The notes: generated by a model not told the origin, from the sequence alone. A stretch of DNA of 64,000 nucleotides from Rickettsiales bacterium (GCA_036770365.1 DAIPJH010000001.1:236767-300766); one strand, 5' to 3'; positions 16,896-37,170 are shown, counted from the first letter of the stretch. A program made the numbers and translations.

Positions 16896-19712
16896 CTAAA
16901 TCTGATTCAACTTATCCAGAAGTTCGTCTGCTGTAGAGATCACACGGGTATTGGCCTGATACGCACGCTGTGCGACGATCATATCCGTCAGCTCTGAAGC
17001 CAAATCAACGTTCGATTGCTCTAGTGAACTTGACACGACATCACCCGTACCATTCGTCCCTGCATCACGGAGATTCAATTCTCCAGACTCTTGTGTTTGC
17101 GAATACACATTACCAGATTCAGGCTGCAAACCATTAGCATTCACGAAATCTGCAATTGGAATCTGAAATAGTGATTTACTCTCACCGTTGCTATAGCTCA
17201 CGATCACAAACCCTGACTCATCAATTGAAACCCCGACCAGCTCACCTACCGGCGCACCGTTTTGGTTCACAAATGCAACGTTATAATCTGAAGCGAACTG
17301 CGTCATTCCATCTGTATCACCAATCTGCAATGCACCTGTTGTACCAGAAGGAAGACCTGCCGTACCAAAATTCATGTCGATCTCACTTGGTAGCGCACCG
17401 TTCGTCCAATTCACCGCCACGTTATTCGTCAGTGATGTGCTGACCTGACGCAGTGTACCATCTCCGTTAAAAGTAATCGTACCGACGGCGATCTGCCCAT
17501 CTGACAATGACGAATTCACCTCTTCTTCATTGACTGCATACACTTCGCATGCCCATTCGTTATCCGCGATTTTGATATAGCTATAACGAATGTCATGTCC
17601 TTCTCCTAAGGTATCATAAATACGCACCGTACGAGAAAACTGCGAGGTGATATCACCTGAAGCCATATTATTACCAGTAACACCACTGGAATCATATTCA
17701 GGCCCTAAAACGCCTGTATCCCCCTGAACATACACGGCAGGCGTCGCCACTGTACCTTGCAATGAATCGACTAAACCAAACTCAGCAAGCAAGCTCCCTC
17801 GGTTGGTGTTCGCAATTTCACCGTCGGTATTCCCTGCGCCCGCAGCGATTACCCCAGAACTTGTGATCGTGATCTCAAAAGTATTCGCGCCTGTGACGTT
17901 TGTCACGGTATGTACACCATTTAATTCTGATGATGTGAAGCCTTGGAACACCGACATATTGGAAAGATCGATATTATCCCCAACACTGAGACCATGGCCT
18001 GCAAGCGTAATGGTTACTACCTGAGGCCCTGCTGGACCACCAGGAGTCGTCACTGAAGCCGCTGCAAGTGCTTGTGGTGTGCTGACGTAATCCGTAATCT
18101 GCAACGTATCAAGAGGATCATCCACATGCAACGAAAGAGTAGTATCCCCGAGAGGATCGGTCAATATCGCCGACACCCCTTCATCACCATTCACAAGATC
18201 ATTAAGACCTTGCATGGTTGAAAATCGTCGTGACCCTACCGCTACGTCAGCCACATCTAACTCACTCACCCAGTCAATCCCTTTGAGTGCGCCACTACCC
18301 GTTGCGTCCACATTGGCAAATGTCACCGATTCATTCGCGTCTTCAGCACCAACCACCAAGCGACCATCAACTACGCGTGCGGTCAAACCCACTACATTGT
18401 CAATGGCATCTGCCAAGTTTGTTAAATTGTTAAACTGACCCGAAGAAGCACTCGGCGAACCCGATGTGTAAGTAAATGTTGCTGTTCCGACAGACGGCGT
18501 AGCAATCGTAAAACTACGAGCTGCCGTAGTAAAACCAGCCAAGCTTGTCGACTGGAAAAATGCTTGCGTTGCAGTAGCAGCATCTAAAATATTTCCTGTA
18601 AACAAACGCTCTGTATGCGATCCACTTGCCAAGTTCGCTGTCGCCACAGATGAAACCGTCGTAACAGAAAAAGTAAATGTATTCGCACCCGTCGCCGTGA
18701 TCACATGCGTTGTGTTGATTTCGGAAAGTGGAATATCCGCTGCCGCTAACGTCACGCCATTAAGATCGATCACATCTCCTGTTGCATAACCTAAAGATGC
18801 TAACGTCACTGGCAAGGTCACTGTCACCGTGTTGGTCAAACCATCAGTGGTTAATTCACCTGCGCCAAAACTAGTGGCACTTAGATCAACCGCGCCATCC
18901 CCCATATTACCAGTACCTGACGTCGTCACCTGACGCCCTAAAGCAAACCCACCATATTGATAGTCATACTGCAAACCATTACCTGTGGCGAGTGTGATAC
19001 GATCACCACGAGCAATACCATTAGTAACAGCTAACCCAAAAGACGGAGGGGTTGCACTCGTCTCATCTGGAACAATGATATCATCCGCACTAATACCATA
19101 GTTATTTGCAGAAAACTGATCCATAGTAATGGTCGCACCCGCACCGAGATACACATCTTCACTCGCATCCAGATTCATACCAAGCGCAATATCAGTGGTT
19201 GCGCTTGCAACACCCTGAGCGGATTCCACGTTCACCACTTGCAAGCTTTCAAGCGTTGAACTCGCAGCGGAATTCAAATTCCCCGGTTCGCCTGGTTTCA
19301 AACCTCCATTATCCAACGGCCATGCCATCAAATAGTACCCAGCTGCATTACGAAAGTTACCCGTCTCATCCTGACGAAATGACCCTGCACGGGTATAGAG
19401 TGAGCGTCCACCTGCATCGGCGTCAGTATTCACCACAAAAAAGCCATTACCAGAAATCGCAATATCTGTTGGCGAACTTGTAGAAGACAACAAACCTTGA
19501 TTATCAATGCTGTAGCGCGCTGTAGCACGCGCACCACCCGGAGAATAAGTGCTTGCCCCTGGCTGTGTTACCACTAAGGTCTGGAAACTTGCTTCTGCCT
19601 TCTTATAACCCACCGTATTCACGTTCGAAATATTATCCGAAATGATACCAATTTTCTGACCCTGAGTATTAAGCCCAGACACCCCAGTAAATAATGCTCC
19701 GTATAATGACAT
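16896..19712 (-). CDS. flgE: flagellar hook protein FlgE, unusually long (938 aa)
   Basis: The N-terminus MSLYGALFTGVSGLNTQGQKIGIISDNISNVNTVGYK and the C-terminus LEQSNVDLASELTDMIVAQRAYQANTRVISTADELLDKL are canonical rod/hook segments. The central ~600 aa are Thr/Ser/Gly/Ala-rich insert. Confidence 0.9.
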   Translation of the reverse strand: MSLYGALFTGVSGLNTQGQKIGIISDNISNVNTVGYKKAEASFQTLVVTQPGASTYSPGGARATARYSIDNQGLLSSTSSPTDIAISGNGFFVVNTDADAGGRSLYTRAGSFRQDETGNFRNAAGYYLMAWPLDNGGLKPGEPGNLNSAASSTLESLQVVNVESAQGVASATTDIALGMNLDASEDVYLGAGATITMDQFSANNYGISADDIIVPDETSATPPSFGLAVTNGIARGDRITLATGNGLQYDYQYGGFALGRQVTTSGTGNMGDGAVDLSATSFGAGELTTDGLTNTVTVTLPVTLASLGYATGDVIDLNGVTLAAADIPLSEINTTHVITATGANTFTFSVTTVSSVATANLASGSHTERLFTGNILDAATATQAFFQSTSLAGFTTAARSFTIATPSVGTATFTYTSGSPSASSGQFNNLTNLADAIDNVVGLTARVVDGRLVVGAEDANESVTFANVDATGSGALKGIDWVSELDVADVAVGSRRFSTMQGLNDLVNGDEGVSAILTDPLGDTTLSLHVDDPLDTLQITDYVSTPQALAAASVTTPGGPAGPQVVTITLAGHGLSVGDNIDLSNMSVFQGFTSSELNGVHTVTNVTGANTFEITITSSGVIAAGAGNTDGEIANTNRGSLLAEFGLVDSLQGTVATPAVYVQGDTGVLGPEYDSSGVTGNNMASGDITSQFSRTVRIYDTLGEGHDIRYSYIKIADNEWACEVYAVNEEEVNSSLSDGQIAVGTITFNGDGTLRQVSTSLTNNVAVNWTNGALPSEIDMNFGTAGLPSGTTGALQIGDTDGMTQFASDYNVAFVNQNGAPVGELVGVSIDESGFVIVSYSNGESKSLFQIPIADFVNANGLQPESGNVYSQTQESGELNLRDAGTNGTGDVVSSSLEQSNVDLASELTDMIVAQRAYQANTRVISTADELLDKLNQI

Positions 19713-19796
19713 AACCTACTCCTTTTAAACTCTCTTGTGAATGCGAAGCGCATTACCATTAAATAATTAAGTCGTGTATTCTCTTCATACCCAAAA

Positions 19797-20525
19797 CTAA
19801 CTCGATGGAAGTTCACGTATCCCCTTCACATCAGCAATTGGCACTTCAAGATTTCCTACCGTCAACACGACATTGCCATCGGCATCTGTACTTGCTGCGG
19901 ACACACGTCCCGTCGTTGATGTAGTAGCTTCAAGTTTCGTGCCATCATAGCCTGTTGCGTTTACAACAAGATAATAATCGCCCGCAGCCATCTTCTGACC
20001 TGAAATTGAATTCGTACCGTCCCATGTCACCAAATTCGACCCAACATTCCCTGGTCCTGTTCCGTTAAAGACCACCTTGCCCGTTGCGTCAGCAATCGCT
20101 ATTTTGACATCTTTCGCAGGCACATCGAGACTATACACGAACGGTGCTGTCCCGCTGCTGGTCAAGAAACCAGCATTGCCTTTTGCATCCACAGCCTTAC
20201 CAATATAGCTACTCGCACCTTGCACCCCAGTGTTGGAATTAAGAGCAATCAATTTTTCTAAATTAGTATTGGTTGCTAATTGCTGCTCAACCGTTGCGAA
20301 CTGCACAAGCTGTGAGGTAAATTCGTTTGTATCAAGCGGCTCAGAAGGATCTTGGTTCTTCAACTGCGTGGTCAATAATTTTAAAAAATCATCAAAATTA
20401 TCACCAAGCTTTTTGCGATCCGTTTCCGACTTCGACGGGTTGCTTGCTTGTGATATCTTATTCAACGTTGTATTGGTTGCATTAGATGTATTGACTGTAT
20501 TCACCGTATTTGCGCTCGTAACCAT
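19797..20525 (-). CDS. flgD: flagellar hook capping/assembly protein FlgD
   Basis: Motif FLKLLTTQLKNQDPSEPLDTNEFTSQLVQFATVEQ and a C-terminal Ig-like region. It lies between fliK and flgE. Confidence 0.85.
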   Translation of the reverse strand: MVTSANTVNTVNTSNATNTTLNKISQASNPSKSETDRKKLGDNFDDFLKLLTTQLKNQDPSEPLDTNEFTSQLVQFATVEQQLATNTNLEKLIALNSNTGVQGASSYIGKAVDAKGNAGFLTSSGTAPFVYSLDVPAKDVKIAIADATGKVVFNGTGPGNVGSNLVTWDGTNSISGQKMAAGDYYLVVNATGYDGTKLEATTSTTGRVSAASTDADGNVVLTVGNLEVPIADVKGIRELPSS

Positions 20526-36668: not shown

Positions 36669-36684
36669 AGATTAGGTTCAGTCC

Positions 36685-37170
36685 ATGCAAAGGACAGCGT
36701 TTCAAGCGTATAATCAGGCAATGCATACTGTCGGTAAGACAAGGCAGGTGGTGATGCTTTACGATGGGGCTATTCGTTATTTGCAACAAGCACGACAGGC
36801 TATCGAAGAAAACCGTATTGAAGAACGTTATAAGCTACTTGTGCGCGTCTCCGAGATTTTAATGGGACTACAATCTGCTTTAGACTTTGAAAATGGCGGC
36901 AATATCGCACGTATACTCTATGATTTTTATTCCTCTCTTGATGCAAGACTCACTAAAATTCAACGCACGAATAGCCTTTCAATATGTGATGATGTTATTG
37001 AGGAACTCAAGCAAATGCGCGGCATCTGGCATGATATTGACGCACAAAGCGCAGACTCATCGACAGCAGGCCAGCATGATCCGCTCGCACCAACAGAGTC
37101 TTTTGTAGCACCAAGTGCGAATACGCAAGAGCAACCCATCAATTTTTTACCGAGTGACTTCTCTGCTTAA
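36685..37170 (+). CDS. fliS: flagellin-specific chaperone FliS
   Basis: VVMLYDGAIRYLQQARQAIEENRIEERYKLLVRVSEILMGLQSALDFENGGNIARILYDFY matches the FliS four-helix pattern. It follows fliD. Confidence 0.85.
   Translation: MQRTAFQAYNQAMHTVGKTRQVVMLYDGAIRYLQQARQAIEENRIEERYKLLVRVSEILMGLQSALDFENGGNIARILYDFYSSLDARLTKIQRTNSLSICDDVIEELKQMRGIWHDIDAQSADSSTAGQHDPLAPTESFVAPSANTQEQPINFLPSDFSA

Follow-up and report, generated by a model that had tools for sequence, protein, structure and literature searches.

What are the unusually long axial proteins of an uncultured bacterium's flagellum made of, and what kind of organelle would they build? The question is raised by a gene cluster in a Rickettsiales bacterium (GCA_036770365.1), contained in a stretch of 64,000 nucleotides (DAIPJH010000001.1:236767-300766, hereafter the window). 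[quoted passage not shown] These were expected to form extra outer domains with adhesive, enzymatic or immune-evasion roles.

The flagellar locus

The cluster is chromosomal and, as had been proposed, alphaproteobacterial and of the FliX type, with FlgE, FlgK, FliC, FliD and FliK encoded together. Both Pfam and NCBIfam back the identities of FlgE, FlgD, FliK, FliX, FlgI, FlgK, FlgL, FliW, FliC, FliD and FliS, and an ORF check reproduced exactly the protein sizes given in the prediction. The genes are as follows:

16896..19712, minus strand: flgE, hook protein, 938 aa (Pfam Flg_bb_rod, LlgE_F_G_D1, FlgE_D2, Flg_bbr_C)
19797..20525, minus strand: flgD, hook cap, 242 aa, ordinary size (Pfam FlgD, FlgD_ig, FLgD_tudor)
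20564..22540, minus strand: fliK, hook-length control protein, 658 aa (Pfam Flg_hook at residues 518-598)
22790..23224, minus strand: fliX, alphaproteobacterial class II flagellar regulator (Pfam FliX, E 1.6e-31)
23426..24676, plus strand: flgI, P-ring protein (Pfam FlgI, E 1e-134)
24696-25058, plus strand: flgJ-like rod-binding protein (Pfam Rod-binding, E 2.7e-9)
25055-25603, plus strand: weak candidate for a FlgN-like chaperone (Pfam FlgN, E 0.0037, under cut-off)
25659..28385, plus strand: flgK, hook-filament junction protein 1, 908 aa (Pfam FlgK_D1, Flg_bb_rod, Flg_bbr_C)
28435..29349, plus strand: flgL, junction protein 2, 304 aa, not enlarged (Pfam Flagellin_N)
29448..29984, plus strand: fliW, flagellin-binding assembly factor (Pfam FliW, E 8e-16)
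29977..31158, plus strand: fliB-like flagellin lysine-N-methylase, 393 aa, 14 Cys (NCBIfam NF038110)
31459..34317, plus strand: fliC, flagellin, 952 aa (Pfam Flagellin_N, Flagellin_C, Flagellin_IN)
34426..34827, plus strand: 133-aa ORF, FlaG-like by position only
34914..36668, plus strand: fliD, filament cap, 584 aa (Pfam FliD_N, Flagellin_IN, FliD_C)
36685..37170, plus strand: fliS, flagellin chaperone (Pfam FliS, E 5e-26)

With flgI as the anchor, 80 syntenic loci were collected, and gene order is conserved across them. Pfam and NCBIfam searches gave no match for the 133-aa ORF; its counterpart in relatives is a conserved ORF of 107-150 aa, also between fliC and fliD, a position that suggests a FlaG-like protein. 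A gene for an RTX protein lies close to the cluster.

Size and conservation of the long proteins

The best 120 matches for each of FlgE, FlgK and FliC are homologous over nearly the whole length, at 43-86% identity, and alignments of 63-67 homologues of each protein are almost without gaps; to judge by these comparisons, all three are therefore real genes and not chance ORFs. The carriers found are all uncultured metagenome-assembled genomes (MAGs) labelled 'Rickettsiales/Alphaproteobacteria'. Across more than 100 such lineages the size and inserts of FlgE and FlgK are fixed, with lengths of 918-967 aa for FlgE (best 120 clusters) and about 903-929 aa for FlgK (best-matching clusters; median 909 aa among 59 complete FlgK proteins in syntenic loci). 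Their architecture is constant over habitats as different as lakes, sludge, marine sites and gut. FlgL has a median of 303 aa in 57 relatives. In contrast, clade genomes with the same FlgK and the same FlgL carry FliC proteins of 559-1183 aa and FliD proteins of 581-830 aa. This contradicts the proposed coordinated enlargement; judged from the predicted proteins, FliC and FliD vary in size through gain and loss of modules inside the same clade.

The extra length is indeed central in each long protein, at residues ~190-690 of FlgE, ~338-800 of FlgK and ~150-850 of FliC. The insertion points are the D2 loop in FlgE and the D1-D1 gap in FliC and FlgK. The composition described for the inserts holds for the long axial proteins (T+S+G+A+N 0.45-0.52, 0-1 Cys), but it does not distinguish the inserts, since the small FlgD has the same bias (0.49). 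The exposed surfaces are strongly acidic (pI ~4.1).

A four-module insertion in the hook protein

The assignment of FlgE as a hook protein rests on PF00460, PF22692, PF07559 and PF06429, all over cut-off, and on a score of 291 bits against TIGR03506 (FlgEFG subfamily; cut-off 70); FlgE structures rank first in both the sequence and the fold search. Salmonella FlgE aligns only with residues 10-185 and 692-934, and the D2 loop carries an insertion of about 500 residues composed of four modules:

17643..19145, minus strand: FlgE insert, residues 190-690, in the D2 loop (E_a, beta-barrel 1, middle domain, beta-barrel 2, return linker)
18846-19145, minus strand: module E_a, part of the insert
18597..18839, minus strand: small beta-barrel copy 1, residues 292-372 (hhalign internal duplication, reciprocal HMM matches)
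18078..18596, minus strand: middle domain, residues 373-545, ~170 aa, a conserved module
17802..18032, minus strand: small beta-barrel copy 2, residues 561-637 (hhalign, reciprocal HMM matches)

The view that only the D0/D1 segments are canonical needs amendment for FlgE, in which D2 (PF07559, residues 688-819) is canonical as well. The best Foldseek match of the AlphaFold2 model (mean pLDDT 86.7) is the Campylobacter jejuni hook 5jxl (E 4e-30). In the homologue alignment the insert has an identity of 0.50, against 0.62-0.64 for the core, with ~3% gaps; the middle domain is its best-conserved module (0.60), while the barrels are the least conserved parts of FlgE (0.37). Among 1.84 billion representatives the insert found 136 matches, 105 of them FlgE. 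FlgEs of 700-1400 aa carry one to four copies of the middle domain, which also occurs in one FliD and has no sequence relative in the PDB at E <= 10. The original prediction had allowed that the inserts might prove to be ordinary, well-characterised folds of the same size clade-wide; the same size they are, well-characterised they are not.

The junction protein and a barrel in common with the hook

FlgK scores 302 bits against TIGR02492 (flgK_ends; cut-off 170.75) and matches PF22638 (FlgK_D1) at E 5e-44. Salmonella FlgK (9go6) aligns at both ends, and residues ~333-825 of the window protein stand in place of its residues 317-470. These alignments demonstrate, for the predicted protein, an outer region of about 460 residues with one small beta-barrel module in common with FlgE:

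26670..28058, plus strand: FlgK outer region, residues 338-800 (modules K_a, beta-barrel, K_b, K_c)
27150..27377, plus strand: FlgK small beta-barrel, residues 498-573, homologous to two FlgE copies

The FlgK insert is almost gapless, with an identity of 0.52 against 0.48-0.49 for the core. A subclade with FlgK of ~800 aa is without the barrel module, and two related MAGs (L025 and L031) have their FlgK divided between two ORFs.

The internal duplication of the barrel in FlgE was recovered by hhalign with a probability of 96.9% (E 1.7e-10), and the FlgK barrel is homologous to both copies (96.6% and 95.5%); HMMs of the FlgE and FlgK modules match reciprocally at iE 6e-9 to 1e-11. Copy number among FlgEs ranges from 0 to 5. 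Residues 561-619 of FlgE weakly match the Pfam family End_beta_barrel (PF12195; E 0.0037, 17.6 bits against a cut-off of 35), and several FlgE homologues have precomputed matches to PF12195 or to the E1 FCCH domain (PF16190). Foldseek likewise finds phage endosialidases (E ~5e-6, with the low TM-scores of partial matches) and phage fibre proteins. The repeated barrel thus has a weak likeness, in sequence and structure, to these domains, with scores under curated thresholds; the PF12195/PF16190 barrel occurs in phage fibre proteins, whereas the candidate barrel here is embedded in flagellar axial proteins. The FlgE barrels may resemble the carbohydrate-binding barrel of endosialidases, and ligand binding would fit them as well as a structural role.

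Flagellin, cap, ruler and methylase

FliC is a flagellin by PF00669 (E 2.5e-31) and PF00700 (E 5.2e-21). Long terminal helices occupy residues 4-130 and 859-951 of its AlphaFold2 model (mean pLDDT 84.4), whose best Foldseek match is the flagellin of Geovibrio thiophilus (9au6, E 2e-17). The outer region comprises ~700 residues in about six modules, two of which are duplicates by hhalign (probability 95.9%) and HMM cross-matches:

31906..34008, plus strand: FliC outer region, residues 150-850 (about six modules, C_1 to C_6)
31909-32262, plus strand: C_1, duplicate of C_4
32839-33129, plus strand: C_4, duplicate of C_1

Relatives form a nested series of modules. At 952 aa the window protein falls short of the giant flagellins of Thomson et al. 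2018 (>1000 aa), a length that relatives of 1040-1318 aa do reach. As pLDDT is mostly above 85 in the inserts of the FlgE and FliC models, the models support the prediction that these are folded, outward-facing domains.

Two other claims of enlargement did not survive. FliD (PF02465, E 1.6e-17; PF07195, E 1.1e-39; PDB 5fhy, E 7e-16) is, at 584 aa, inside the known range, with relatives of 581, 596, 735, 776 and, in P0450, 830 aa. FliK is a secreted hook-length ruler and not a structural protein of the surface; its 658 aa are unremarkable beside relatives of 510-597 aa.

Directly upstream of fliC, between fliW and fliC, lies fliB, which the original prediction had overlooked. Its product scores 123 bits against NF038110 (cut-off 85) over residues 6-361 of 393, and fliB is found in 51 related loci, beside fliC across the clade, with relatives carrying PF27117 (FliB_C). 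FliB is known to act on surface lysines (PMC7181671, PMC8598068), and its presence makes it probable that the flagellin is methylated. The extent is uncertain because the exposed parts contain few lysines (1 of 501 residues in the FlgE insert, 13 of 701, or 1.9%, in FliC).

Comparison with known flagella

The original prediction had noted that large flagellins and large epsilonproteobacterial hooks are each known separately; for joint expansion of hook, junction, filament and cap a precedent is published in Campylobacter, with FlgE of 865 aa, FlgL of 750-950 aa and FlgK of 608 aa (PMC5691160, PMC5097172), and in Campylobacter and Helicobacter FlgL, FlgK and FliD are all enlarged. The C. jejuni hook measures 280 A in width, compared with 180 A, and domains D3/D4 of its FlgE add contacts and robustness, a stabilising role that has been demonstrated (PMC5097172); the D3/D4 insertion spans codons 233-618 (PMC5069557). 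Campylobacter FlgE is the best match for window FlgE in sequence and fold, the large FlgE domains of Campylobacter and Helicobacter (5jxl, 5az4) occupy the same D2 loop, and both systems combine several enlarged axial proteins in a single organism. There are differences too. The hook protein here is longer (938 against 865 aa), and the four modules of its insert, with a duplicated small barrel, show no sequence relationship to D3/D4, the profile alignment with 5jxl inside the insert being of low confidence. The giant junction protein is FlgK (908 aa), with FlgL minimal (304 aa), and the lineage is alphaproteobacterial, as FliX indicates, rather than epsilonproteobacterial. Membership of the epsilonproteobacterial large FlgEs was rejected, the TIGR02489 (flgE_epsilon) match reaching 206 bits against a cut-off of 412.85 with its best stretch at residues 680-937, in the core only and not full-length with the D3/D4 insert. 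A Caulobacter-type FlgE was rejected as well (NF040922 flgE_Caulobact, 269.9 bits against 750); the protein of Caulobacter crescentus (591 aa, 5ay6), whose hook measures 245 A, has one extra domain (D3) against four here.

Large flagellins are a second point of reference. Giant flagellins (>1000 aa in Bermanella and Oleibacter) arise by stepwise domain duplication and form filaments of at least 30 nm (PMC6248924); that of G. thiophilus (792 aa, D2-D5, 9au6) forms a filament of 240 A with a negative surface (PMC11532411). Window FliC has in common with them many outer domains between ND1 and CD1 and growth by internal duplication (C_1/C_4), and with G. thiophilus an acidic surface. It belongs to another lineage, however, and only D0/D1 match by sequence, and the earlier studies cover flagellin rather than hook or junction. 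With respect to the FliB-FliC pair of Salmonella, the orthologue here exceeds the NCBIfam equivalog cut-off in an alphaproteobacterial, environmental setting, but the exposed region of FliC holds far fewer lysines.

A probable reinforced flagellum

The locus is best read as encoding a second 'armoured' flagellum, built independently of the one known from Campylobacter, and not a new kind of organelle. Our preferred reading, to which we give a probability of roughly 0.6, is a flagellum with thick hook, junction and filament bearing extra outer domains, in which the constant hook and junction layers would be mainly mechanical and the flagellin and cap layers would tune the surface. By analogy with Campylobacter, whose D3/D4 are unrelated in sequence to the FlgE insert, a mechanical role of the hook and junction layers is the most likely one, and the whole is most likely a thick, mechanically reinforced polar flagellum. 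On an 11-protofilament lattice the FlgE modules would be arranged as additional concentric layers, and a crude mass scaling puts the hook diameter at roughly 27-31 nm. FlgK would form a wide collar matching the hook, and the FliC filament would equal or exceed in thickness the 24-30 nm on record for large flagellins. Extra contacts between subunits, as in Campylobacter D3/D4, would make the universal joint and the junction stiffer and more stable. The flagellin and cap layers, which are variable, acidic and poor in lysine and are probably methylated, would tune surface properties, for example hydrodynamics, adhesion, or the evasion of phages and grazers.

Alternative readings

Of the rivals to mechanical reinforcement, an adhesive or lectin-type surface fares best, although we consider it unlikely. 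The FlgE/FlgK barrels and some flagellin and cap modules would bind glycans or surfaces, and the flagellum would double as an organelle of attachment to prey, hosts or particles. The barrel's resemblance to End_beta_barrel, E1_FCCH, phage endosialidases and phage fibre proteins points this way, but through Pfam scores under curated cut-offs and partial structural matches. The barrels are also the most variable FlgE modules in identity and copy number, yet the FlgE/FlgK architecture is fixed over these diverse habitats, which does not suggest a habitat-specific ligand. Further hints are a GH115_C-like domain in the FliD of one relative, the adhesion promoted by FliB methylation in Salmonella (PMC7181671) and the nearby RTX protein; against them stand the strongly acidic surfaces and the position of the hook, a structure of only ~120 subunits beside the cell surface and thus a poor place for an adhesin.

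Less probable still is antigenic or phage-receptor diversification, in which the outer domains would serve as an expendable coat that evolves fast and shields the core from phages, grazers or host immunity. The nested gain and loss of modules in FliC, the variation in FliD beside an unchanged FlgK and FlgL, and a FliC insert whose identity (0.43) lies far below that of the core (~0.79) would suit such a coat. However, across 67 homologues (47-86% identity) that insert aligns with only ~5% gaps, a degree of variation that falls well short of the hypervariable enterobacterial H antigens. Immune evasion fits FlgE and FlgK poorly because their inserts keep a constant length throughout the clade and differ little from their cores in conservation.

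Catalytic inserts, as in flagellinolysins, are the least likely reading on function and very improbable. A marginal, partial match to flagella_HExxH (NF033876; 33 bits against 205) is confined to the conserved C-terminal region, and the FliD match to GH115_C is that of a single relative; in agreement with the original prediction, the axial proteins contain no HExxH or other catalytic motif, Pfam and NCBIfam returned no enzyme family, and the FlgE and FliC Foldseek matches include no enzyme fold except the non-catalytic endosialidase barrel. A flagellinolysin assignment was accordingly rejected. Finally, mis-assembled, fused or decaying genes, which the two-ORF FlgK of some relatives might bring to mind, are refuted by full-length, intact orthologues, which come from over 100 independent assemblies produced by many studies, together with conserved synteny and confident FlgE and FliC models.

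Gene identities and protein sizes

The original prediction held that the axial proteins of the flagellum encoded at 16896-37170 are enlarged together. The ORF lengths that it reported match ours exactly, and Pfam and NCBIfam models confirmed every identity:

16896-19712 (-), hook protein FlgE, 938 aa
25659-28385 (+), FlgK, 908 aa
31459-34317 (+), flagellin FliC, 952 aa
Same cluster: FlgD, 242 aa; FliK, 658 aa; FlgL, 304 aa; FliD, 584 aa

The same models also identified FliX (E 1.6e-31), FlgI, FliW, FliS and a single-domain, FlgJ-like rod-binding protein in the cluster. The remainder of the window is chromosomal housekeeping (the dcw cell-division cluster, recN, ligA, lpxC, clpX and the RNase P RNA), indicating that the flagellar cluster is a normal chromosomal locus. 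The compositional bias claimed for the inserts is real (T+S+G+A+N 0.45-0.52, Cys 0-1) but equally strong in the small FlgD, and so cannot serve as their hallmark. In all, the observation of enlargement is confirmed, while its interpretation is partly supported.

The hook protein insert

Salmonella FlgE is alignable solely to residues 10-185 and 692-934 of the window FlgE, and confident alignment of C. jejuni FlgE is likewise limited to residues ~6-198 and ~690-935. This restriction to the flanks places an insert of ~500 residues in the D2 loop, where D3/D4 of Campylobacter (codons 233-618) and D3 of Caulobacter are also located (Yoon et al., PMC5069557). D2 itself (PF07559, residues 688-819) is canonical in FlgE, contrary to the earlier view that only D0/D1 are. 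The AlphaFold2 model of FlgE has a mean pLDDT of 86.7, with most of the insert above 88. Profile-profile and HMM analyses resolve the insert into four modules and a return linker:

Residues 190-289, module 1, designated E_a
Residues 292-372, small beta-barrel, copy 1
Residues 373-545, middle domain of ~170 aa
Residues 561-637, small beta-barrel, copy 2 (hhalign probability 96.9%, E 1.7e-10)
End of the insert, return linker to D2

Searched against PDB sequences, the middle-domain profile gave no match at E <= 10. Its visual resemblance to the "Flagellin IN" motif was without Pfam support, and we do not make this assignment. Identification of the insert as D3/D4 by sequence (TIGR02489) and of the protein as a Caulobacter-type FlgE (NF040922) was rejected, both models scoring below cut-off and aligning with the core alone. 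A PHROGs search of FlgE and FlgK returned nothing.

Modules shared among axial proteins

In FlgK, ~493 residues stand where the Salmonella protein has ~154 (317-470). This outer region consists, in order, of K_a, a barrel, K_b and K_c. The FlgK barrel (residues 498-573) shares homology with each of the two FlgE copies (hhalign probability 96.6% and 95.5%), and the FlgE and FlgK barrel HMMs match reciprocally with iE of 6e-9 to 1e-11. Module sharing was judged by these profile-profile and HMM tests in place of BLASTP, which, run all-against-all on the axial proteins without composition correction, yielded spurious low-complexity alignments such as one of 463 aa between FlgE and FlgK. In seven genomes that form a divergent subclade, FlgK is ~800 aa long and precisely the barrel is missing. 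Pfam gave sub-threshold matches of the FlgE barrel to End_beta_barrel and E1_FCCH, and the Foldseek matches to it, from whole-chain lists that conserved cores dominate, include endosialidases of phages (E ~5e-6) as well as phage fibre proteins.

Used alone as the query in an exhaustive search, the FlgE insert found only 136 matches among 1.84 billion representative proteins. FlgE termini are present in 105 of these and most of the others are fragments; the few non-flagellar carriers have barrel-type Pfam matches only. Insert-bearing FlgEs of 700-1400 aa contain one to four copies of the middle domain and zero to five of the barrel, and the middle domain also occurs twice in an 830-aa FliD (P0450) from another 'Rickettsiales' MAG. 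A small common pool of outer-domain modules thus supplies the axial proteins, one being common to FlgE and FlgK and another to FlgE and FliD. Module HMMs found no FlgE, FlgK or FliC module in the window FliD, and hhalign detected no homology of the FliC insert with those of FlgE or FlgK (probability <= 2%).

Flagellin and cap

The FliC model (pLDDT 84.4) contains about six outer modules, C_1 to C_6, between ND1 and CD1, of which C_1 (151-268) and C_4 (461-557) are duplicates. Its top fold match is the Geovibrio thiophilus flagellin 9au6 (792 aa, E 2e-17), followed by other outer-domain flagellins. Across relatives the modules are nested, while FlgK stays at ~905 aa.

Outer modules of FliC in relatives, by protein length
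~560 aa: C_6 only
674 aa: C_5 and C_6
~700 aa: C_1, C_5 and C_6
935-975 aa: C_1 to C_6
~1170 aa: C_1 to C_6, with C_2 duplicated

The window FliD matches ordinary cap structures. In four relatives FliD measures 581, 596, 735 and 776 aa, the two largest being far above that of the window:

10011-12341 of locus L083, FliD, 776 aa, with a GH115_C-like Pfam match
11092-13299 of locus L084, FliD, 735 aa

Residues 563-951 of the window FliC (33145-34317, +), comprising the C-terminal outer modules and CD1/CD0, match phrog_16088, a family of unknown function (E 2.8e-21), which places flagellin-like sequences within a phage-protein family.

Distribution and conservation

In a database of 5.8 billion proteins, the best 120 matches to FlgE are all 918-967 aa long, with at least 49% identity and 99-100% coverage, and nearly all of the best 120 to FlgK are 903-929 aa. 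About 80 flagellin clusters measure 900-980 aa and match with full coverage, accompanied by variants of ~800 aa and 1040-1318 aa. The named sources are all uncultured MAGs ("Rickettsiales bacterium", "Alphaproteobacteria bacterium" and a few "Azospirillum sp."), originating from lakes, ponds, activated sludge, marine samples and gut; lakes and activated sludge are settings where the clade is common. The enlarged hook, FlgK and flagellin are not a one-off.

ORFs were also called in 80 syntenic loci from species-representative genomes, with FlgI as the anchor. Syntenic FlgK has a median of 909 aa (n=59, range 793-1122) and FlgL one of 303 aa (n=57); complete FliC ORFs range from 559 to 1173 aa, and one incomplete copy has at least 1183 aa. 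FliW and a FliB-like gene are present almost always. The most distant locus, L080, encodes a FlgK of an ordinary 479 aa, and a FlgE of 853, a FlgK of 904 and a FliC of 587 aa apparently occur together in a more distant genome. FlgE and FlgK are constant in size across the clade and FliC and FliD variable; the predicted joint enlargement therefore divides in two: that of the hook and FlgK is old and fixed, while that of flagellin and cap is lineage-specific and modular. Two related MAGs carry flgK as two ORFs (509+419 aa in L025, 616+287 aa in L031); gene decay, a frameshift or a faulty assembly could each account for the split.

Mean identity to the window protein, taken across alignments of 63-67 sequences with gap fractions of 1-5%, is 0.50 in the FlgE insert (0.60 in the middle domain, 0.37 in the barrels) versus 0.62-0.64 in the core, 0.52 in the FlgK insert versus 0.48-0.49, and 0.43 in the FliC insert versus ~0.79. 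The FlgE and FlgK inserts, fixed in length and conserved like the core, point to structural constraint and argue against antigenic drift. Judged by these alignments, flagellin has more freedom to vary.

A DUF2671 protein (16293-16673, -) directly adjoins flgE. This Pfam family was described from Rickettsia, and its presence would be a weak hint on lineage.

Surface charge and a flagellin methylase gene

With a pI of ~4.1, the exposed parts are acidic; they are also poor in lysine. The FlgE insert (residues 190-690; 17643-19145, -; pI ~4.05) has a single Lys in 501 residues and the FliC insert 13 in 701. That of FlgK is likewise acidic and lysine-poor, and FlgL and FliD have 4-5% Lys. The following gene, unmentioned in the original prediction, occupies the gap between fliW and fliC:

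29977-31158 (+), orf393, Cys-rich FliB flagellin lysine-N-methylase of 393 aa (NF038110, 123 bits versus a cut-off of 85)

The order fliW-fliB-fliC is conserved in about 51 related loci. In Salmonella, FliB methylates surface-exposed lysines, increasing hydrophobicity and adhesion (PMC7181671, PMC8598068). At 3898-5532 of locus L082, the fliW/fliB interval holds an extra TPR-methyltransferase gene. Between fliC and fliD lies a 133-aa ORF (34426-34827, +) without a Pfam or NCBIfam match; relatives have ORFs of 107-150 aa there, and its position makes a divergent protein of FlaG type the probable identity.

Comparison with known systems and possible function

C. jejuni FlgE (865 aa) has been termed "one of the longest" hook proteins, and its D3/D4 domains are said to be confined to Epsilonproteobacteria. 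With them the hook gains width, 280 A in place of 180, and greater robustness (PMC5097172, PMC5069557). The window FlgE is larger still, and its insert occupies the same D2 loop without sequence relationship to D3/D4. The Campylobacter junction and cap are also enlarged (FlgL 750-950 aa, FlgK 608 aa; PMC5691160). There, however, the large junction protein is FlgL, whereas in the present clade it is FlgK, at 908 aa the largest compared (solved full-length FlgKs have 553-673 aa), so that the size pattern is reversed. Filament thickness is at least 30 nm for giant flagellins, those of more than 1000 aa (PMC6248924), and G. thiophilus has a negatively charged filament with a width of 240 A (PMC11532411). 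Our literature searches found no account of large hooks or large FlgK proteins from this lineage of alphaproteobacteria and nothing relevant on Micavibrio or Rickettsiales flagella. In this clade the armoured, multi-domain flagellum has a second lineage, with a domain set of its own; it does not amount to a new kind of organelle.

With the architecture, insertion sites, conservation, module sharing and fliB gene established, we propose that the inserts build up further layers concentric with the core. When R^2 per residue is scaled from the three hooks that have been measured, a 938-aa FlgE would be expected to give a hook of 27-31 nm. If Campylobacter is a guide, inter-subunit contacts added by the constant layers of hook and FlgK would strengthen the universal joint and junction, and the variable flagellin and cap layers would tune surface properties.

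The principal rival is lectin-like adhesion through the barrels, whose partial structural matches lie among phage endosialidases and fibres. Diversification against phages or immunity is plausible only for FliC and FliD, the proteins of variable length. An enzymatic role has no support, the axial proteins lacking HExxH and the Foldseek matches of the FliC model including no enzyme fold. An artefact is refuted by the recurrence of these proteins.

It is conceivable, if improbable, that the outer layers of hook and FlgK interlock through their common barrel into a continuous sleeve or, alternatively, constitute a glycan-binding hook/junction collar. Such a sleeve would span the hook-junction boundary and be made of a phage-fibre-type barrel and a middle domain lacking a solved sequence relative; if real, it would be a mechanical solution unlike that of Campylobacter with its enlarged FlgL.

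Large multi-domain hooks extend beyond Epsilonproteobacteria to a second widespread lineage, both environmental and gut-associated. The clade offers a natural replicate for asking whether outer hook domains reinforce the universal joint, and how hook and junction co-adapt. Campylobacter domains have already been placed in Salmonella as chimeras, with D3/D4 of C. jejuni in strain TMT233a, an approach applicable without culturing a clade member.

Other genes in the window

Four loci outside the flagellar cluster deserve mention:

3329-6007 (+), 892-aa RTX-repeat protein, ~11 kb upstream of the flagellar cluster
6979-8634 (+), TPR repeats fused to a sulfotransferase domain (Sulfotransfer_3, E 6e-43)
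51490-53562 (-), three-domain multicopper oxidase
13019-14125 (+), MipZ/ParA-like ATPase with a TTG start

The RTX protein has a HemolysinCabind match (E 4e-60), at least nine repeat stretches and a serralysin-C-like region. Some bacteria modify their flagellins with proteins in which TPR repeats are fused to a transferase; no flagellar link is implied for the sulfotransferase fusion. The multicopper oxidase gene sits between ddl and murB in an otherwise canonical dcw cluster. The MipZ/ParA-like ORF overlaps the start of the divergent Sua5/TsaC gene (12051-13076, -) by ~58 bp, and its start codon has probably been called too far upstream.
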